From NCBI GenBank assembly GCA_025060615.1, contig JANXBS010000020.1, positions 7,319 through 71,318 on the forward strand: a DNA stretch of 64,000 bases, in the 5' to 3' direction. Below the pieces are notes generated by a model, which was not told where the DNA came from, made no database searches, and saw only the letters and a list, made by a program, of their open reading frames with translations. Positions 3,923 to 64,000 of the stretch are shown piece by piece; position 1 is the first letter of the stretch; each line of letters begins with the position of its first letter. A program made the translations under genes and the position numbers. The DNA comes from Anaerolineae bacterium (GTDB lineage Bacteria; Chloroflexota; Anaerolineae; DUEN01).

Positions 3923-5278
3923 TTACTTCGGATATCCATGCTCTTTGAGGAAAGCATTCACCTGCTCACAGAGCTGTGGAACCACCTCTTCTGGCGTCGC
4001 CTCGCCGGCCCATATTCGCTCCAGCGCCGGGTCAATGATGGAGCCGCTCAGCTCGCCCCACTCGGCGAAGTAGCCGAACCGCCCCACTTTGGCGTTTTCA
4101 CCCTCGATGAGGAAGGCCATGCGGTTGGCAGGAGGTTTACCAGCCTTTAGAAAGGCATCCGAGCGAGCGGTGGAGCGCAAGGCGGGGAAGATCTCACCCG
4201 ACTCGGTATAGATGCGCTGACCGCCATTAGTGCTCTGAAGCCAGCTCAGGAAGGTCCAAGCCTCTTCCTTGTTATCGCTCACCGCGCTCATGACCCAAGC
4301 CGCGCCGCCCGCAGCTGCCGCTCGCTGGCCGCCCTTCGGGATCGGCACGGGCGCCACGTCATAGTTCATTCCAGCCGCGTTGAAGGTGGAGACCCGGCTG
4401 GCATTCTGAATGATCATGGCCACCTGGCCACTCTGGAAGACCGCCGCGTCGCCGCCCGCCTGGTTCAGGCTGGCGGATCGCATGGCCAGGTTGCGATTCA
4501 TGAGATCCGCAAAGAACTTGATCCCCTCCATCGCCGCCGGCTCGGTCAAGGTGCACTTGGAAGGGTTGCGCATGTCATCCAGGATGCTGCCCCGATTCTG
4601 GCCCACCCAGAGCTGCCACTTGCCTCCCTCCATCCCCAGGGCATATCGGGCTACGCGGCCAGTGGGCTCCACCACTGTCAGCTTCTCCGCCGCAGCAACG
4701 AAATCGTCCCAAGTCCAGTTCTCGTTAGGGTACTCGACCCCGGCCTCGTCAAAGATGTCCTTGTTGTAGTAGAGCACCTCGACGCTCACATCGCGCGGCA
4801 GGCCATAGACGCTGCCATTCCACATGGCCGATTCCAGCAGCGCCGGCCAATAGTCGCTCAGGTCGTAGTTGCTCTTCTGGATCCAGGGATCGAGGTTCTC
4901 CAACACACCCTCCGCAGCATAACGCGGCGTCGGCCATAGGAAGAAGACGTCTGGGATAGCCGTCGGATCGCCGCCAGCGAAGAGGGTCTGCAGCTTGGTG
5001 AAGTAGTCGCTCCAGGGGTAATGCCAGTACTCAATCTTGATGTTGGGATGCTCGGCCATAAAGGCCTGGGCCACCTTCTCATGGGTGGCGCGCTCCTCAG
5101 CGCTACCCCAGAAGCCCCAGGTCAGGGTGACGACCTTTTCGGCAGCCGGTGTTTCGGCAGCCGGCTGCTCGGCCGCGGGAGGGGCCACTGGAGGCGGCGT
5201 GGGCACCACACAGGCGCTGATCGCCAAGGCGAAAGCCGACAGCACCATCATCACGTGAAGCATACGATCCTTGAACAT
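3923..5278 (-). CDS. Sugar ABC transporter substrate-binding lipoprotein (family 1)
   Basis: Start moved to ATG 5278 (SD AAGGAGGGAG). Lipobox LAISAC, Pro/Ala linker, GSVYGLP...VLYYNKDIFDEAGV. Confidence 0.93.
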   Translation of the reverse strand: MFKDRMLHVMMVLSAFALAISACVVPTPPPVAPPAAEQPAAETPAAEKVVTLTWGFWGSAEERATHEKVAQAFMAEHPNIKIEYWHYPWSDYFTKLQTLFAGGDPTAIPDVFFLWPTPRYAAEGVLENLDPWIQKSNYDLSDYWPALLESAMWNGSVYGLPRDVSVEVLYYNKDIFDEAGVEYPNENWTWDDFVAAAEKLTVVEPTGRVARYALGMEGGKWQLWVGQNRGSILDDMRNPSKCTLTEPAAMEGIKFFADLMNRNLAMRSASLNQAGGDAAVFQSGQVAMIIQNASRVSTFNAAGMNYDVAPVPIPKGGQRAAAAGGAAWVMSAVSDNKEEAWTFLSWLQSTNGGQRIYTESGEIFPALRSTARSDAFLKAGKPPANRMAFLIEGENAKVGRFGYFAEWGELSGSIIDPALERIWAGEATPEEVVPQLCEQVNAFLKEHGYPK

Positions 5279-5792
5279 TGCTCCCTCCTTAAAAATAAGA
5301 TCTCTGCTGAGCTGAATACTCCTCCTGCCAGCGGACAAGCGAAGACAAAACGCCGCTTCGCTTCTGCTGCCCGCTTCTAGAAAGCCTAAGTAAGAAAGGA
5401 GATCGACATCTCTTATGATAGCATCACTTGACAGTCCGAGCAAGGCCTTGCGCTGAGGGCTTCTCGGAAAACTACGAAGGACACAAAGGGTACAAAGCGC
5501 GGCCTTTTGTGCTTCCTAGGGGACCTCTAAGGCAAAGCGGCGCTACGCTCTTACAAGCCTTTTTACCTGCCCATTGGCCTGAGCTGGTCTCCTAAAGCCC
5601 CAATCACCGCAGAGACGCCTGCCCGCCCCTGAACACGGAAAGTGGGGTTGCCGCGCGATGAAAAATGTGATATCCTAAAAAGTAGAGACGCGGGATGAGC
5701 CGCTTTCCCCGAAGCGATCCGGTCGGCATCGAATCGGCTCCGCGATCCTACGGCTACTGGCGGTCAAAGGCCGCAGAACCGGAGGGGCCGAG

Positions 5793-7301
5793 ATGGAAGG
5801 CACCGTGGCACTTCCAATCCTCAGGTTGACCGACATCCACAAGTCGTTTGCCGGCGTCCACGCGCTGGCTGGCGTCTCTATGGAACTGCTCCCCGGCGAA
5901 ATCCATGCCTTGATGGGCGAGAATGGCGCTGGCAAATCCACCTTGGTCAAGGTGATGACCGGCGTCCATCAGCCCGACGCTGGCACCATCGAATTCGGAG
6001 GCCGCCCCGTGAAGTTCTCATCTCCTCTGATAGCTCGCGAGTATGGCATCGCCGCAATCTACCAAGAGCCTACCCTCTTCCCGGACTTGGACGTCGCCGA
6101 GAACATTTTTATAGGGCGCCAGCCGGTACACCCGAAGTCCCGCCGCATCGCATGGCAGGCGATGTACGAGGAGGCCGACCGGCTGCTGAGATCCCTGGGC
6201 GTGGACATAGACCCACGCGCCCGTGTGCGCGATCTCAGCTTCGCTGATCGGCAGATGGTGGAGATCGCCAAGGCGCTGTCCATTCGTGCTCGCGTCCTGA
6301 TCATGGACGAGCCCACTTCAGCGTTGACATTACGGGAGGCCGAGGAGCTGTTTCGCATCGCCCGACAATTGCGGGATCAGGGCACCTCCATCGTCTTCAT
6401 TTCGCATCGGTTGGAGGAGGCCTTCGAGCTGGCCGATCGCGTGACGGTTCTGCGAGACGGGCACTACATCGGCACTCGTCTCATCCGAGATGTCACCCCT
6501 GGCGAGGTGATCCGCATGATGGTTGGGCGCACGCTGGAAACGCTCTTCCCCAAGGAGTCGGTCAAGCCTGGGCCAGTGGCGCTACGTGTAGAGGGGCTCA
6601 CCCGCCCTGGCGCGTTCTGGGATGTGTCGTTTGAGCTACGGCAGGGCGAGATCCTGGGGCTAGCTGGGCTGGTGGGGGCGGGTCGTACCGATGTCGCGCG
6701 CGCTATCTTTGGGGTGGCGCCGGCCGAGCGAGGGACGATCTGGGTGGACGGCACCCCTGTCCGCATCCAAAGCCCTGAAGACGCGCTGGCCTTGGGGATC
6801 GCCTATGTGCCGGAGGATCGGCAGCAACACGGCCTGGTGCTGCCCATGCCCATCACCCACAACGTCACCCTGCCCATCTTGCAGGCGTTTGCCCGCATGG
6901 GATGGATGGATCGAACGGCCGAGGAGCGCGTGGCGGCGGAATACGCCAGCCGGCTTGACGTCCGCTCGGCCGGGCTGTGGCAGCCCGTGCGCGAGCTCTC
7001 GGGCGGGAACCAGCAGAAGGTGGTGCTGGCCAAATGGCTGGCCGCGCGGCCGCGCATCTTGATCCTAGATGAGCCCACCCGAGGGATTGATGTGGGCACT
7101 AAAGCGGAGGTGCATCGCCTGATGAGCCAGCTCGCCGGCCAGGGGATGGCGATCCTGATGATCTCCTCCGAGCTGCCGGAGATCCTAGGGATGAGCGATC
7201 GCATTCTGGTCATGCGCGAGGGACGCGTGACCGGGCATTTCACACGCGCTGAGGCAACGCAAGAGCGGATCATGGCCGCCGCCACAGGAGCGCTGACATA
7301 A
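5793..7301 (+). CDS. rhaT: Monosaccharide ABC transporter ATP-binding protein (CUT2, two NBDs), rhamnose-type
   Basis: Walker A GENGAGKST, LIMDEPT, LSGGNQQKV, LDEPTRGIDVG; same operon as a RhaS-like binding protein. Confidence 0.88.
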   Translation: MEGTVALPILRLTDIHKSFAGVHALAGVSMELLPGEIHALMGENGAGKSTLVKVMTGVHQPDAGTIEFGGRPVKFSSPLIAREYGIAAIYQEPTLFPDLDVAENIFIGRQPVHPKSRRIAWQAMYEEADRLLRSLGVDIDPRARVRDLSFADRQMVEIAKALSIRARVLIMDEPTSALTLREAEELFRIARQLRDQGTSIVFISHRLEEAFELADRVTVLRDGHYIGTRLIRDVTPGEVIRMMVGRTLETLFPKESVKPGPVALRVEGLTRPGAFWDVSFELRQGEILGLAGLVGAGRTDVARAIFGVAPAERGTIWVDGTPVRIQSPEDALALGIAYVPEDRQQHGLVLPMPITHNVTLPILQAFARMGWMDRTAEERVAAEYASRLDVRSAGLWQPVRELSGGNQQKVVLAKWLAARPRILILDEPTRGIDVGTKAEVHRLMSQLAGQGMAILMISSELPEILGMSDRILVMREGRVTGHFTRAEATQERIMAAATGALT

Positions 7302-58826: not shown

Positions 58827-59563
58827 TGCCTATTGCGGATACTCCTCTCCGGAACATTCAGCTTCTTCAGCAGGTCCGCCTCTTTCAAGACCTCAGCTCT
58901 GACGACTTGGCGATGATCATTCGAATAGCCTGGCATCGCCAGGTCGAACGCGGCTCCTTTTTCTTCCTTGAAGGTGAGCCGGCGACGCATCTCTATATCC
59001 TCACCCAAGGGCAGGTAAAGCTGGCTCAGCTTACGCCCGAAGGCCACCAGGTGATCTTGCGCTTCGCCTGTCCTGGCGAAATGTTCGGAGGCATCGCCGC
59101 CTTGGGGGCTTGGGAATATCCAGTCTCCGCCGAGGCCATGGACGATTGTCAGGCGCTGGCGTGGGATGGAGAGACGATGGCCCGACTCATGGAACAATAT
59201 CCACGCCTGGCCGTCAATGCCCTCCATCTGTTAGCTCAGCGCATTCAGGAGCTGCAAGATCGCCTCAGAGAGATGACGACAGAACGGGTAGAGCGCCGCA
59301 TTGCCCGCGCGCTGTTGAGGCTGATCCGGCAGGCGGGGCGTAAGGTGGAAGGTGGAGTGCTGATTGATCTCCCTCTCTCCCGTCAGGACCTGGCCGAGAT
59401 GACCGGCACCACCTTGTACACCGTCAGTCGAATTCTCAGCCGCTGGGAACACGAAGGCCTGATCGAGAGCGGACGAACTCGGGTCCTCGTCCGCCGTCCA
59501 CATGGCTTGGTAACCATCGCCGAAGATCTGCCCGGTGCCTCCGCTTCCGAAGAGCTCTTGTGA
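58826..59563 (+). CDS. Crp/Fnr-family regulator, NnrR/DNR-like
   Basis: cNMP-fold (GQVKL.Q...G..VIL...PGEMFGG); HTH LSRQDLAEMTGTTLYTVSRILSRW resembles the NnrR recognition helix; no FNR Fe-S cysteine cluster. Confidence 0.9.
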   Translation: MPIADTPLRNIQLLQQVRLFQDLSSDDLAMIIRIAWHRQVERGSFFFLEGEPATHLYILTQGQVKLAQLTPEGHQVILRFACPGEMFGGIAALGAWEYPVSAEAMDDCQALAWDGETMARLMEQYPRLAVNALHLLAQRIQELQDRLREMTTERVERRIARALLRLIRQAGRKVEGGVLIDLPLSRQDLAEMTGTTLYTVSRILSRWEHEGLIESGRTRVLVRRPHGLVTIAEDLPGASASEELL

Positions 59564-59695: not shown

Positions 59696-61732
59696 ATGAA
59701 GAACAGGGCCTGGCAGAGGTATCTTCCCATCGCAGTCGTCGTCGGGATCGTCGCGGTCGTTCTGGCCGCCGTGTTGCTGATCATCCGACAACCGGCGGAA
59801 GAGGCGGCAGCCCCACAGGCCACTCAACCAGTGGCGGCAAACGTATCCGGTGACGCGGCGGCCATTGCTCAGGAACGCGGGCTGACGCCTGATGATGTAG
59901 TAGCTGCGCTGAAGACTTACGTCCCCACCGGCAAGCACGATGAGTATGTCATGTTCTCCTCAGGCGGCCATTCTGGCCAAGTCTTGGTCATCGGCATCCC
60001 CTCAATGCGTCTGCTCAAGGTGCTTGGCGTCTTCACCCCAGAGCCATGGCAAGGATGGGGCTACTCTAAAGAAACCCAGGAGGTCCTAGCCGAGGGCAAC
60101 GTCAACGACCAAGCCATCACTTGGGCGGACACCCACCATCCATCTCTCAGCGAGACGGATGGCGAGTACGATGGCCAGTGGCTCTTCATCGGCGATAAAG
60201 CCAACTCCCGCGTCGCTGTCATTGATCTACGTGATTTCGAGACCAAGCAGATCGTCAAGAACCCCATCGCCATCAACGACCACGGGGGCACCTTCGTCAC
60301 ACCCAACACCGAATGGGTGGTTGAAGGCGGGCAATATGCTACGCCGCTGGGCTGGAAGTATGCCTCCATCGACGAGTATGTCCAGAGCTATCGCGGCTCG
60401 ATCACCTTCTGGAAGTTTGACCGTGAGAAGGGTCGCATCATCCCGGAGGAGTCCTTCGCGATGGAGCTGCCGCCCTATTGGCAGGACCTATGCGACGCCG
60501 GCAAGAAGGTGAGCGATGGCTGGGTCTTCTGCAACTCCTTCAACACCGAGATGGCCACCGGCGGCATCGAGGTCGGCAATCCCCCCTTTGAGGCCGGCAC
60601 CTCGCAACGGGACATGGATTACCTGCACATCATCCACTTGAAGAAGGCTGTCGAGGTGGCGGCAGCCGGCAAGACGGAACTAGTCAACGGCTTTCGGGTG
60701 ATCCCGCTCAGCACCTCCATCGCTGAGGGGTTGCTTTACTTCGCGCCGGAGCCGAAGAGTCCTCATGGCGTAGATGTGGCACCAAGTGGTGATTACATAG
60801 TTGTCGGCGGCAAGCTAGACCCGCATGTGACGGTGTACAGCTTCCAGAAGATCTTAGATGCCATCGCCAAGGAGCCAGCTGAGAGGGACCAATATGGCGT
60901 GCCCATCCTCAAGCTGGACGATGTGATGGAAGCCCAGGTCGAGCTAGGGCTGGGGCCGTTGCACACCCAGTTCGATGACAAAGGATATGCCTATACCAGC
61001 CTGTTCCTGGACAGCGCGGTGGCCCGCTGGACGCTGGGCGGCCCATACCAGGAAAAACATAGCGAGCCCGCGTGGTCGCTGGTCAGCAAGCTCCCTGTTC
61101 ATTACAACATTGGCCACCTAGCAGCCGCCGAGGGCGACACCGTCAGCCCCGATGGCAAATATCTGGTCGCTCTCAACAAGTGGTCGGTGGACCGATTTGT
61201 GAACGTGGGACCTTTGCTCCCGCAGAACTTCCAGCTTGTGGACATCTCGCAGCCGGGCGACAAACTGCAGCTCCTGTACGATATGCCCATCGGCATCGGC
61301 GAACCACACTACGCCCAGATCATCAAGGCGGACAAGCTTAAGGCATGGGAGGTCTATCCGGAGATCGGCTGGAACCCGCGCACGCAATCGAAGCATCCCA
61401 ACGCGGTAGAAGTCGGCCAGGAGCGGATCGAGCGACGCGGCAACACGGTGGAGATCTGGATGACCGCTGTGCGCAGCCACTACACGCCGGAGCGGGTGGA
61501 GGTCAAGAAGGGCGATCATGTGATCTGGCACATCACCAATGTCGAACGTGCTCGCGATGCCACTCACGGCTTTGCGCTGCCCGGGTATAACATCAACCTG
61601 AGCCTAGAGCCGGGCGAGACAGCCACCATCGAGTTTGATGCGACGCAGGATGGCGTGTTCACATACTACTGCACGGAGTTCTGCTCGGCGCTGCACCTGG
61701 AGATGGCGGGATACTTCCTGGTGCAGCCTTAG
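59696..61732 (+). CDS. nosZ: Nitrous-oxide reductase, clade II (Sec-type, no Tat motif)
   Basis: FSSGGHSGQV, DTHH, NDHGG, PKSPHG, GPLHTQFD, GHL and EPHY CuZ motifs; CuA HGF...YYCTEFCSALHLEM; start ATG 59696 (SD GGAGG). Confidence 0.97.
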   Translation: MKNRAWQRYLPIAVVVGIVAVVLAAVLLIIRQPAEEAAAPQATQPVAANVSGDAAAIAQERGLTPDDVVAALKTYVPTGKHDEYVMFSSGGHSGQVLVIGIPSMRLLKVLGVFTPEPWQGWGYSKETQEVLAEGNVNDQAITWADTHHPSLSETDGEYDGQWLFIGDKANSRVAVIDLRDFETKQIVKNPIAINDHGGTFVTPNTEWVVEGGQYATPLGWKYASIDEYVQSYRGSITFWKFDREKGRIIPEESFAMELPPYWQDLCDAGKKVSDGWVFCNSFNTEMATGGIEVGNPPFEAGTSQRDMDYLHIIHLKKAVEVAAAGKTELVNGFRVIPLSTSIAEGLLYFAPEPKSPHGVDVAPSGDYIVVGGKLDPHVTVYSFQKILDAIAKEPAERDQYGVPILKLDDVMEAQVELGLGPLHTQFDDKGYAYTSLFLDSAVARWTLGGPYQEKHSEPAWSLVSKLPVHYNIGHLAAAEGDTVSPDGKYLVALNKWSVDRFVNVGPLLPQNFQLVDISQPGDKLQLLYDMPIGIGEPHYAQIIKADKLKAWEVYPEIGWNPRTQSKHPNAVEVGQERIERRGNTVEIWMTAVRSHYTPERVEVKKGDHVIWHITNVERARDATHGFALPGYNINLSLEPGETATIEFDATQDGVFTYYCTEFCSALHLEMAGYFLVQP

Positions 61733-61804: not shown

Positions 61805-62482
61805 GTGGTGATCCGGATGGAGACGTTGGAGAAGCTCGTCGGGCCACGTACACCCGCCGAGCAGATGGCTCAGGACCGCTTACGCTATCTACTTCCCACG
61901 GTCCTTCTGGGGTTGGCGGCGTTCTGCTTGCTGGTATCCATCTTTGTGCCCTACTGGCGTATGAAGCTACTGGCCCCGCAATACCCTCGCGGGCTGCAGG
62001 TGCAGGTCTACGTCAACCGGCTAGCGGGGGACGTGCGGGAGATTGACGGGCTGAACCACTACATCGGGATGCGCCCTCTGAGCGAGGCTGCCCAATTGGA
62101 GCGCTCGTTGAGCATCTTCGTCATTGCCGTGCTCTCGCTGCTGGTGATCGCGGCCATCTATGTGCACAACCAGTGGGCAGCCCTGTTGTCGTTGCCGGCC
62201 TTGCTCTTCCCGGTCATCTTCCTAGGGGACCTTTACTTCTGGCTGTGGAACTTCGGGCAAAACCTGGACCCGAAAGCACCGCTGAGCAGCGCTATCAAGC
62301 CCTTCGTGCCGCCGGTATTGGGCGAGGGGGTGGTTGGCCAGTTTCGGACGATCGCCGCGGTAGATCGAGGGTTTTATCTAGCCCTCTTGGCCTCTGCACT
62401 CATCCTGCTCGGCCTGTATTTCCACCGGCGCGCGTATAAGCCGCTGGTGGATGCGGAGCGCCGGCGTCCGGCCGAAGGATAG
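61805..62482 (+). CDS. nosB: NosB-like 4-TM membrane protein of clade II nos clusters
   Basis: PYW.MKL.APQYP.GL...IDGLNHYIGM...GQNLDP.APL; lies between nosZ and nosD. Confidence 0.75.
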   Translation: MVIRMETLEKLVGPRTPAEQMAQDRLRYLLPTVLLGLAAFCLLVSIFVPYWRMKLLAPQYPRGLQVQVYVNRLAGDVREIDGLNHYIGMRPLSEAAQLERSLSIFVIAVLSLLVIAAIYVHNQWAALLSLPALLFPVIFLGDLYFWLWNFGQNLDPKAPLSSAIKPFVPPVLGEGVVGQFRTIAAVDRGFYLALLASALILLGLYFHRRAYKPLVDAERRRPAEG

Positions 62483-62486
62483 TGGT

Positions 62487-64000
62487 ATGGAATGGCCTCT
62501 GCGCCTGACTCTGTCCGCATGGATCCTCTTATGCTGGCTCTGGCCGGCGCCGGTGCTGGCTGCTCTAGGGCCATGGCAGCCCCTCGTTGTCTCGCCGCAG
62601 GGGCCGTATACAACGCTGACCGAGGCCCTGGCCGTGGCCCAGGACGGCGATACCATCGAGGTGCATGGAGGGAGCTACTCTGGCCCCCTGACCGTTGACC
62701 GACGCCTCGCGCTCATCGGCTACAATTGGCCGGTGATTGACGGCGGCGGGCGGGGCACGGTGGTCAAACTGGCCGCGTCGGGCATCGTGTTTCGAGGCTT
62801 CGTGGTCCGCAACAGCGGCGACTCGTTAGAGGAGGAGAACTCCGGCATCGCCGTGGAAGCGCCTGAGGTTGTCGTCGAGGGCAATCGGCTGGAAGGGACG
62901 CTGTTCGGTATTTACCTGAGCCGCGCCCATGGCAGCTTGATCCTGGGCAATATGATCCAGAGTAAGGACCTGCCCCTGCCACGCCGGGGCGACGCGATCC
63001 GCATCTGGTATAGCGACGGCGTGCGCATTGAGGGGAACACGGTGGAGCGTGGCCGGGATGCCGTTCTCTGGTACTCGGAGGGCCTGGTCCTGCGCGGCAA
63101 CACGCTCCGAGGCGGGCGGTATGGCCTGCACTTCATGTACTGCGACGATGCCTTAATCGAAGGAAACGTCATCACTGACAACTCAGTGGGCGTATTTTTG
63201 ATGTATAGCCGCCGCCTACACCTGCGCCGCAACATCCTGGCCCATAACCGGGGTCCCAGCGGCTACGGCATCGGCCTCAAGGACATGGACGACGTAGTGA
63301 TCGAGGAGAACCTGCTGTTGGATAACCGCGTGGGGGCCTTCCTGGACAACTCGCCGCGGGAGATCGAGAGCATCGGCTTGTTCCGCCAAAACGTATTCGC
63401 CTTCAACGATATCGGCATCAGCCTACTGCCGTCGGTACGTCGCAACCATTTTGTGGAGAATAGCTTCATGGAGAACCAGGAACAGGTAGACGTGGCCGGC
63501 GGCGGGCAACTGGAAGGAGACCTGTGGACGGTGGACGGGCGCGGCAATTACTGGAGCGACTATGCCGGTTTTGACGCGGACGGCGATGGAGTGGGAGATG
63601 TGCCCTACCGGGCCGAGCGGTTGTTCGAGAGCCTGATGGGTCGGCATCCGGAGCTGAGGTTGTTCCTCTACAGCCCAGCGGCCCAGGCGGTGGACTTTGC
63701 CGCTCGCGCGTTCCCACTGGTCAAGCCACAGCCGAAGTTGACCGATGACCGCCCGTTGATGGCGCCGGTGATCCCAGAGGGGCTTCCTGCACTGCCTCAA
63801 CCCTCACGCCAGCCGCTGGGGATCGCCTCAGTCGGCCTGCTGGCGGTGACGGCGACGTTGACCCTCCTCGCGCGCCGCACGGCTGACCTTCTCCTCGTCC
63901 GCCGTTCGTCGCCCATCATCCGTTACCCCCAGTCAGAACGGGAGGCTATGGTACATGTGCGCGATCTGACCAAGCGGTTTGGCCCTCTGGTGGCCGTGGA
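62487..64000 (+). CDS. nosD: NosD copper-insertion protein continuing in frame through a TM helix into a NosF-like ABC ATPase N-terminus (3'-truncated)
   Basis: Absent from the ORF track because it has no stop in the window. Manually translated and open from ATG 62487 to 64000: signal peptide, beta-helix, RYGLHFMYC, GNYWSDYAGFDADGDGVGDVPY, TM 63816-63872, then MVHVRDLTKRFGPLVAV. Confidence 0.9.
   Translation, partial: MEWPLRLTLSAWILLCWLWPAPVLAALGPWQPLVVSPQGPYTTLTEALAVAQDGDTIEVHGGSYSGPLTVDRRLALIGYNWPVIDGGGRGTVVKLAASGIVFRGFVVRNSGDSLEEENSGIAVEAPEVVVEGNRLEGTLFGIYLSRAHGSLILGNMIQSKDLPLPRRGDAIRIWYSDGVRIEGNTVERGRDAVLWYSEGLVLRGNTLRGGRYGLHFMYCDDALIEGNVITDNSVGVFLMYSRRLHLRRNILAHNRGPSGYGIGLKDMDDVVIEENLLLDNRVGAFLDNSPREIESIGLFRQNVFAFNDIGISLLPSVRRNHFVENSFMENQEQVDVAGGGQLEGDLWTVDGRGNYWSDYAGFDADGDGVGDVPYRAERLFESLMGRHPELRLFLYSPAAQAVDFAARAFPLVKPQPKLTDDRPLMAPVIPEGLPALPQPSRQPLGIASVGLLAVTATLTLLARRTADLLLVRRSSPIIRYPQSEREAMVHVRDLTKRFGPLVAV

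Follow-up and report, generated by a model that had tools for sequence, protein, structure and literature searches.

The window, a stretch of 64,000 nucleotides from a contig of an Anaerolineae bacterium, ends within an open reading frame that starts as nosD and runs on into an ABC-ATPase, raising the question of whether NosD and NosF, separate subunits in the known NosDFY complex, are made here as one chain, and what such a chain would mean for the complex. The original prediction, that no stop interrupts the frame between 62487 and the end of the window, was borne out by translation of 62487-64000 (forward strand), which gave 504 codons and zero stops. On the parent contig (GCA_033581235.1 JAVQTP010000004.1, locus L001; window position = L001 position + 52486) the nosD-nosF frame continued beyond the window to a total of 751 amino acids (2256 nt), with residue 751 at window-equivalent 64742. 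ATPase motifs were present downstream, with nosY and nosL next. An independent Logan assembly of SRR15826899 (locus L002) encoded an identical 751-aa protein, and in neither assembly was a stop or frameshift found in the linker. The positions first assigned to the transmembrane (TM) helix, the RR pair, the ATPase strand, GGAGG, ATG, GTG and the Pro-rich linker were all correct. Taken together, the open frame, its motifs and a survey of homologues confirmed the proposed single-chain NosD-TM-NosF layout: NosD and NosF are encoded as one membrane-spanning polypeptide.

The fused gene was part of a nos cluster on the forward strand. Upstream lay a Crp/Fnr-family regulator (58913-59563; L001 6427-7077; PF00027, PF13545), followed by nosZ encoding a clade II, Sec-dependent N2O reductase (59696-61732; L001 7210-9246; TIGR04246, 879 bits, cut-off 625) and a nosB-like gene for a polytopic membrane protein of 225 aa (61805-62482). 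The nosB-like protein had no match in Pfam or NCBIfam and was recognized by its position between nosZ and nosD and by its LNHYIGM motif, which is the motif given for NosB (PMC9697520). Homologues occupied the same position in almost all of the 79 loci compared. Downstream, the start of nosY (PF12679, 93 bits) overlapped the stop of nosD-nosF, and nosL (PF05573, 60 bits) and a cytochrome c gene followed, both with a lipobox. The order nosZ-nosB-nosD(F)-nosY-nosL was identical in fused and split loci across the 79.

The protein started with a putative Sec-type signal peptide (aa 1-26, 62487-62564), hydrophobic at aa 7-27 and with a predicted helix at aa 3-17; its cleavage site, after PVLA and before the next A, was inferred without a dedicated predictor. 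The NosD right-handed beta-helix domain (aa 44-425, 62616-63761) matched TIGR04247 over its full extent at 432 bits, above the curated cut-off of 300, bearing out the NosD identity, and PF05048 at 155 bits (cut-off 23.6). It also matched Pseudomonas stutzeri NosD by phmmer (7o0y_A, E 2.5e-42) and by Foldseek (7osf_A, 397 columns, TM-score 0.75 normalized to the target). The AlphaFold model (mean pLDDT 81.5) comprised a beta-helix, with pLDDT mostly >90 over aa 30-375, a TM helix, a disordered linker and a nucleotide-binding domain (NBD). Between the two halves, a Pro-rich extracytoplasmic linker was read from the sequence (KPQPKLTDDRPLMAPVIPEGLPALPQPSRQP, aa 426-443, 63762-63815), and a consensus drawn from 67 fused proteins retained its P.GLPALP motif. 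It led into a single TM helix (LGIASVGLLAVTATLTLLA, aa 444-462, 63816-63872; Kyte-Doolittle 19-mer score 2.06), modelled by AlphaFold as a helix at 442-468 (pLDDT 82-92); the only other hydrophobic segment on the Kyte-Doolittle scale was the N-terminal signal. Directly after the helix, RR (aa 463-464) opened a basic, disordered cytoplasmic linker (beginning RRTADLLLVRRSS, aa 463-487, 63873-63947; pLDDT <50 at aa 469-484), which was followed by the first strand of the NosF ABC-ATPase (MVHVRDLTKRFGPLVAV, aa 488-504, 63948-64000), a domain that runs to aa 706 outside the window. Across 45 fused loci the linker between TM helix and ATPase ranged from 18 to 76 aa and was in frame every time. The N-terminal signal, a lone TM helix following the domain and the positive charges beyond that helix predict an extracytoplasmic NosD; in 117 homologues, the 15 aa on the N-terminal side of the helix contained on average 0.85 K+R and the 15 aa on its C-terminal side 3.87. 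A topology with NosD outside and NosF inside is therefore predicted, and is coherent with the positive-inside rule.

The reading of MVHVRDLTKRFGPLVAV as an ABC-ATPase first strand was upheld by the complete ATPase downstream, with Walker A (GPNGAGKTT), a Q-loop, LSGGMKQR, Walker B (LLVLDEPT) and an H-loop (SSHR). Walker A, Q567, LSGG at 615-618, D639-E640 and H672 were invariant in the 67 fused proteins. PF00005 matched at aa 505-643 (105 bits), and P. stutzeri NosF (7o0y_B) was found with an E of 6e-41 and 40% identity in the Foldseek alignment, 7o0y_B and 7o0y_C both being matched; overall, two-domain ABCA proteins scored above it. NCBIfam held no NosF-specific model, and the best matches there, to generic ABC-2 type ATPases, fell short of their cut-offs, so the assignment to NosF rests on gene context (an ATPase between nosD and nosY) and on the 40% identity to the P. 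stutzeri protein. The C-terminal tail (aa 707-751) was of low complexity with pLDDT <50, and the R-domain found at the C-terminus of P. stutzeri NosF was absent from the protein and its clade. The short tail was common to the two closest relatives (P0002 and P0003), and the relatives P0004-P0013 retained a domain of ~80 aa. Truncation by a frameshift was rejected, as the missing domain was found in no other frame and the two closest relatives were alike. In the 4 kb on either side of the fused loci, no second nosF copy was found; the sole extra ABC-ATPase match, in locus L039, was 32% identical and on the opposite strand, and was rejected as a nosF paralogue.

To place the fusion among its relatives, we surveyed loci from GTDB species representatives. 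In 45 of 79 loci, in Chloroflexota and in other phyla, nosD and nosF were fused, and in 34 they were not; the sample was drawn by a search with the fused protein, which biases both these proportions and any inferred ancestral state. Fused loci spanned at least seven phylum-level groups by record title, including 10 of 10 Thermoanaerobaculia/Acidobacteriota loci, 7 of 7 Poribacteria loci and four from Planctomycetota. Among protein clusters, the fusion was present in 67 of the best 120 at 90% identity and in at least 65 of the best 150 at 50% identity, where identity to the query was as low as 37%. All fused examples came from metagenome-assembled genomes (MAGs) or metagenomic contigs. Several of the non-Chloroflexota bins with the fusion were complete multi-Mb chromosomes. 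On a neighbour-joining tree the fused and split states were explained by three to four changes. The TM helix was present in every relative, fused or unfused. All 34 unfused relatives carried it, with a basic tail, at the C-terminus of the nosD product, and at their junctions nosF either overlapped the nosD stop (ATGA) or began one codon past an in-frame stop. Larger fusions also exist, namely NosB-NosD-NosF and one NosB-D-F-Y. We found no description of these, of NosB-NosD or of the NosD-NosF fusion in the open-access full-text literature, within which the NosD-NosF fusion is apparently undescribed so far.

Taken whole, the best explanation is a genuine, evolutionarily maintained nosD-nosF fusion, to which we assign a probability of roughly 0.85. 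In the working that we propose, Sec export and removal of the signal peptide would place the NosD beta-helix outside the cytoplasmic membrane, and the Pro-rich stalk, the single TM helix and the basic, length-variable linker would lead to a catalytically complete NosF in the cytoplasm. By analogy with known systems, the fusion, NosY and the lipoprotein NosL would form a machine of the NosDFY type for maturing the copper centres in the neighbouring clade II NosZ. Since unfused nosD ends in the same TM anchor and nosF adjoins or overlaps its stop, the fusion probably arose, and was occasionally reversed, through one-step mutations. Anchoring would be the work of the TM helix, and fusion would ensure that the ATPase is made together with NosD, goes to the membrane and assembles with NosD. 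Given a cytoplasmic linker that is neither ordered nor conserved, the fusion probably adds no mechanical link.

Several other accounts of the fused frame were weighed against this one. A stop codon lost, or a frameshift introduced, in sequencing or assembly might have joined two genes, given that the source is a MAG and that obvious frameshifts occur in some related MAG loci (L028, L054). With an identical protein from a second assembler, and with the fusion in 45 species and those 50% identity clusters through in-frame linkers of many lengths, an artefact is scarcely credible and was dropped. It had also been suggested that the fusion is an adaptation tethering NosD in a monoderm Chloroflexota cell that has no periplasm. 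The nearest relatives of the protein are indeed labelled Anaerolineae and Caldilineae, and the lipoboxes on NosL and the downstream cytochrome c imply that the whole module is membrane-anchored. However, the same anchor was present in 34 of 34 unfused relatives, so anchoring needs no fusion, and fused genes also occur in Acidobacteriota (Thermoanaerobaculia), Poribacteria and Planctomycetota, which are diderm phyla with an outer membrane. Anchored, unfused NosD is likewise found in Bacillus (PMC3475470). This rationale is contradicted by the anchored relatives and the diderm carriers; we consider it improbable and rejected it. Post-translational cleavage in the cytoplasmic linker, yielding a separate anchored NosD and a free NosF, would be helped by a linker of variable length and pLDDT <50, which should be open to proteases. 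Yet the linker had no conserved cleavage motif, the conserved cluster contained no dedicated protease gene, and cleavage by itself would leave the 1:1 synthesis ratio unchanged, making this, too, an unlikely account.

A further alternative concerns stoichiometry. In the solved NosDFY complex the D:F:Y ratio is 1:2:2, a figure supported for D and F by PDB chain counts (16 NosD chains in 16 entries and 30 NosF chains in 15 entries, i.e., one D to two F); these counts make real the contrast, drawn in the original prediction, with a known complex of separate subunits and one NosD. A complex of one NosY dimer and two fusion chains would contain two NosD, as opposed to one in P. stutzeri. The predicted forcing of a 1:1 D:F ratio held for 15 of the 45 fused genes, which had no ATG, GTG or TTG near the NosF boundary and so are obligate fusions, and not necessarily for the gene in the window. 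Here, the fusion could be accompanied by a second product from an internal start (GTG 63957 or ATG 63948), giving (NosD-NosF)(NosF)(NosY)2 and restoring 1:2:2, an alternative that supplements the main explanation without excluding it. A Shine-Dalgarno (SD)-like GGGAGG within the coding sequence (63940-63945, forward strand; GGAGG at 63941-63945) had a duplex energy of -9.3 kcal/mol, and GGAGGC, at the same -9.3 kcal/mol, was as strong as real gene starts on the contig and lay about 10 nt from the in-frame GTG (10-11 nt from GGGAGG). The spacing to the ATG was only 1-2 nt, smaller than at almost all called starts with a comparable SD-like motif on this contig, where it is almost always 4-11 nt, a range at whose upper end the GTG spacing falls; a GTG start would cost three residues of the first beta-strand; and GGAGG occurs six times in the frame, one per ~376 nt, so that chance placement is roughly 3-5%. 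Across the 17 fused loci with an ATG at the boundary, which are phylogenetically non-independent and whose Glu/Gly-rich linker codons may mimic an SD, anti-SD pairing just upstream of that ATG averaged -6.6 kcal/mol, compared with -3.5 ahead of 147 Met codons elsewhere inside these genes (Mann-Whitney p = 1.2e-6) and -3.0 over the remainder of the same linkers (paired Wilcoxon p = 7.6e-6). The pairing peak was limited to offsets of -3 to +6 nt and was absent from fused loci without the ATG (ATG-vs-SD association, Fisher p = 1.5e-4). Split loci had weak SDs (-4.1) and depend on stop-start overlap; a fused gene in need of a separate NosF would have to evolve an SD de novo, in keeping with this pattern. 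The absence of a boundary start codon in 15 of the 45 fused genes argues that free NosF is not generally required. The suggestion of an internal start was well taken, with a localized SD-like signal family-wide in the fusions that keep the ATG; in this gene the SD lies very close to the ATG. For ATG-keeping genes, this one included, an additional supply of free NosF by internal initiation is plausible on sequence grounds, and lineages with the motif and ATG at the boundary may restore 1:2:2 in this way; for the full account of two products forming the 1:2:2 complex, we would put the chances somewhat below even.

To our knowledge, no route to active N2O reductase other than NosDFY has been described, and this enzyme is the only biological sink for the greenhouse gas N2O. 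What is known of the NosDFY mechanism comes from a single clade I organism, whose complex has one NosD. Synthesis at 1:1, with many genes lacking any possible internal start, offers a direct test of whether the asymmetric 1:2:2 arrangement is essential or one solution. Repeated in-frame fusion of NosB with NosD-NosF, once together with NosY, would make NosB, an uncharacterized clade II-specific protein, a subunit of the machine, and the NosB-containing and NosD-NosF fusions provide a Rosetta-stone argument for NosB in the maturation complex. We tentatively suggest, while leaning against it as a whole, that many lineages may build an obligate (NosD-NosF)2(NosY)2 or larger complex with two NosD per transporter, that in others, perhaps including this one, a conserved internal start may adjust the ratio, and that NosB may be a physical subunit and not an electron-transfer component. 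The fusion also offers structural studies a construct that is already tethered in nature. Fusions of 750-1300 aa are now annotated just as 'NosD', hiding nosF (and nosB or nosY) from gene surveys of N2O reducers.

The fused system is a variant of the already known NosDFY system. Structures of P. stutzeri NosDFY were reportedly described by Müller et al. in Nature in 2022. With P. stutzeri NosDFY(L) (7O0Y, 7OSF) it shares the NosD beta-helix, the NosF NBD, an ABC-2-type NosY, NosL and an adjoining nosZ. In P. stutzeri, however, NosD is soluble and periplasmic and NosF is a separate chain, whereas in the window both are in one ORF; P. stutzeri NosF has a C-terminal R-domain, according to PDB entry titles, that this protein is without; and the P. 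stutzeri system serves a clade I, Tat-exported NosZ, as opposed to the clade II, Sec-dependent NosZ with nosB found here. Closer in form are Bacillus azotoformans and Geobacillus, whose clade II clusters encode an unfused NosD with a C-terminal TM helix (PMC3475470). These clusters share nosZ and an ORF before nosD, and the unfused Chloroflexota relatives are of exactly such form. In Bacillus and Geobacillus nosF stands as a gene of its own, commonly in the arrangement nosD-nosY-nosF or nosD-nosL-nosY-nosF (PMC3475470), so a NosD-NosF fusion is not one step away there. NosB-NosL fusions in Dyadobacter fermentans and Flavobacterium have been used to infer shared function (PMC9697520). They are a precedent for joined nos accessory proteins, with partners that differ from NosD-NosF. 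In ABC importers of the OpuA and GlnPQ type, the substrate-binding domain is fused to the membrane subunit. By analogy, covalent tethering of an extracytoplasmic partner would give at least two copies per complex and a higher local concentration. In OpuA and GlnPQ that domain is joined to the TM domain, whereas in the window the outside domain is joined through its own TM helix to the NBD and NosY is separate, and NosD, unlike the substrate-binding proteins of these importers, is a copper-transfer platform.

Translation of 62487-64000 gave 504 codons without a stop, which the original prediction had read as a NosD-TM-NosF single chain running off the window end. Its landmarks were all confirmed on the sequence: the TM segment LGIASVGLLAVTATLTLLA (63816-63872) with RR directly after it, GGAGG at 63941-63945, the NosF start segment MVHVRDLTKRFGPLVAV from 63948, and an in-frame GTG at 63957. 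A protein search identified the full-length product as a 751-aa protein (P0001) encoded on contig JAVQTP010000004.1 of GCA_033581235.1 (L001; window coordinate = L001 + 52486). There the ORF runs, as predicted, through a complete ABC ATPase: Walker A (GPNGAGKTT), Q-loop (Q567), signature (LSGGMKQR), Walker B (LLVLDEPT) and H-loop (SSHR); nosY and nosL, sought downstream, both follow the fusion. As the ATPase motifs are complete on L001 and a separate Logan assembly of SRR15826899 yields the identical protein, the chain neither lacks its ATPase nor carries a stop or frameshift in the linker. NosD occupies the N-terminal 425 residues (TIGR04247, 432 bits, cut-off 300; PF05048, 155 bits) and the NosF half matched PF00005 at 105 bits; databases name these proteins 'NosD' only.

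Both halves matched Pseudomonas stutzeri structures, the NosD half NosD 7o0y_A (E 2.5e-42, aa 48-426) and the NosF half NosF 7o0y_B (E 6e-41, aa 489-693). An AlphaFold model of the fusion, with 67 fused homologues as alignment input (mean pLDDT 81.5), comprised a beta-helix (~aa 30-375), a confident helix (442-468), a disordered linker (469-484), a nucleotide-binding domain (NBD, 489-706) and a disordered tail (707-751). Foldseek matched it to NosF 7o0y_B/C (40% identity) and NosD 7osf_A (TM-score 0.75, normalised to target), and found no solved chain spanning both halves. The fusion has only two hydrophobic segments, a signal at aa 7-27 and the TM helix at aa 444-462, and in 117 homologues the 15 residues flanking this helix held on average 0.85 Lys+Arg before it versus 3.87 after. 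From this charge asymmetry and the two segments, the predicted topology is NosD outside and NosF inside. The ~80-aa C-terminal (R-) domain kept by P. stutzeri NosF and fused relatives P0004-P0013 is missing from the NosF half, where a low-complexity, predicted-disordered tail takes its place (P0001 aa 707-751; L001 12119-12253). Since the tail is common to P0001 and its two closest relatives, P0002 and P0003, a frameshift was ruled out as the origin of the short C-terminus.

The fusion has been maintained long-term. Of the 120 top-scoring clusters (90% identity), 67 contained the fusion (698-855 aa) and the other 53 NosD alone (464-522 aa), and the ATPase motifs were invariant in 67/67 aligned fusions. 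An exhaustive search of representatives at 50% identity placed NosD and NosF in one chain in 65 of the best 150, the most distant sharing 37% identity with the query. In a scan of GTDB species, each represented by a single genome, nosD and nosF lay side by side at 79 loci; when stops were checked for between the two tblastn matches at each, 45 were fused and 34 split. By database record labels, fused loci occurred in Anaerolineae, Caldilineae, Ardenticatenia, Dehalococcoidia, Armatimonadota, Vulcanimicrobiota, Tectomicrobia, Thermoanaerobaculia/Acidobacteriota (10/10 loci), Poribacteria (7/7, several on complete chromosomes) and Planctomycetota (4 loci). The cytoplasmic linker (18-76 aa) was unconserved in sequence and in frame in all 45 fused loci.

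Two loci scored as split were anomalous: nosF was spread over two frames in L028 (5393-5973), and the nosD TM region was garbled in L054 (about 5197-5497). Both are probably assembly or sequencing frameshifts of those MAGs. On a Poribacteria chromosome (L075), the nosF part is broken right after LSGGMKQR by an insertion of ~1.2 kb (5869-7091), with the remainder picking up at 7091; the ORF at 6445-7083 looks like a DDE/IS630-type transposase.

In split relatives, NosD already carries this TM helix at its C-terminal end, followed by 6-32 aa of basic tail, and nosF either overlaps the nosD stop as ATGA (L055, L063, L065, L066 and others) or begins one codon past an in-frame stop (L006, L007, L010, L021). 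Given these two junction types, we infer that fused and split states interconvert in one step, by a single substitution or 1-nt indel. An NJ tree of NosD+NosF from 70 loci had only 3-4 state changes and placed the fused state at deep nodes of the clade sampled, though both the tree and the fused/split sample are biased because the fused protein served as query.

The original prediction explained the fusion by tethering of NosD in a cell that has no periplasm. This is contradicted by locus distribution, the fusion being common in outer-membrane phyla (Thermoanaerobaculia/Acidobacteriota, Poribacteria and Planctomycetota), and by anchored unfused relatives: the anchor exists without fusion, both here and in Bacillus, whose NosD is membrane-anchored and not fused (PMC3475470). 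A forced 1:1 ratio of NosD to NosF had also been proposed, unless an internal start supplies free NosF. The contrast with solved complexes holds, as PDB entries contain one NosD and two NosF chains each; whether 1:1 is forced hinges on internal initiation. At the NosF N-terminus of the 45 fused loci (searched from -8 to +1 codons), ATG was at or near the boundary in 17, GTG or TTG only in 13, and no start codon in 15; the residue aligned to M488 was Leu in 18 and Met in 13. From the start-codon counts, at least a third of lineages would be unable to make full free NosF from the fused gene.

In the 17 ATG-keeping loci, anti-SD pairing just upstream of the boundary averaged -6.6 kcal/mol. Upstream of the 147 Met codons inside these genes it averaged -3.5 (p = 1.2e-6), and it averaged -4.1 both in fused loci without ATG and at the genuine nosF starts of split loci. 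The remainder of the linkers in the 17 loci averaged -3.0 (paired p = 7.6e-6), which makes the signal a positionally sharp peak. It goes with ATG at the boundary (Fisher p = 1.5e-4), in statistics where loci are mutually related and Glu/Gly codons can imitate SD. The window GGAGGC pairs at -9.3 kcal/mol, matching the strength at real starts on the contig, and GGAGG occurs once per ~376 nt of the fusion ORF. Its spacing is 10-11 nt to GTG 63957 and 1-2 nt to ATG 63948; almost all called contig starts with an SD-like motif have 4-11 nt. The SD-like peak and the strong window motif favour an internal start for free NosF and the 1-2 nt spacing opposes it; we give the use of such a start in this lineage a chance of about one in three. 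Unfused relatives (e.g. L055, L063, L065, L066) show at their true nosF starts pairing near the -3.2 kcal/mol background and usually an ATGA overlap, which would imply termination-reinitiation coupling, not SD-driven initiation.

Upstream of the fusion lie a Crp/Fnr regulator (58913-59563), a Sec-type clade II nosZ (59696-61732; TIGR04246, 879 bits) and a 225-aa NosB-like polytopic membrane protein (61805-62482), which nearly all of the 79 loci keep between nosZ and nosD. The latter had no family match in Pfam or NCBIfam and carries LNHYIGM, the NosB motif (PMC9697520); NosB apparently has no curated family model. Beyond the window, nosY (PF12679) begins on the last base of the fusion stop codon, followed by nosL (PF05573) and a small 133-aa cytochrome c. 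Fused and split loci share the order nosZ-nosB-nosD(F)-nosY-nosL-(cyt c). Lipobox-like motifs at L001 13083-13994 (NosL, LILGC; cytochrome c, VATGC) suggest that all extracytoplasmic nos accessory proteins of this cluster are membrane-anchored. Directly past the nos genes (L001 14223-16268) lie genes for a DUF1858 protein, two proteins with hemerythrin domains, one DUF488 protein and a CopD/DUF4149 membrane protein; they could extend the cluster into O2/NO sensing and copper handling.

Stop-free NosB-NosD-TM-NosF ORFs of about 900-1200 aa were found at all seven Poribacteria loci (L038, L040, L042, L043, L045, L058, L075; for example, L075 2849-6448), where the NosB part is a tandem duplicate, and at one Thermoanaerobaculia (L031) and one Gemmataceae locus (L046). 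Architectures among the top 150 representatives (50% identity) included B-D-F (10), B-B-D-F (1) and B-D (17). A chain known from one contig only (P0140, 1290 aa; L083 2278-6150, Logan SRR27730042), with nosZ upstream and nosL downstream, is a NosB-NosD-NosF-NosY single ORF joining the whole transporter half, NosD and NosB. By Rosetta-stone reasoning, the NosB-containing fusions hint that NosB may be a physical part of the NosDFY assembly machine.

Alongside the observed architecture, topology signals, intact catalytic motifs and conserved operon, we propose that the fusion chain, NosY and NosL would assemble as a NosDFY-type machine for NosZ, with two tethered NosD per complex unless free NosF is made too. 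As the linker is disordered and variable, the fusion would serve co-synthesis and co-assembly, not force transmission. No NosD-NosF fusion turned up in a full-text search of open-access literature; NosB-NosL fusions are already described (PMC9697520). The proposed working mode of the fusion is that of NosDFY. Its first half matches the NosD family and its second, placed between nosD and nosY, the ABC ATPases; it departs from NosDFY in lacking, in this clade, the NosF R-domain and in the feature of separate subunits at 1:2:2.
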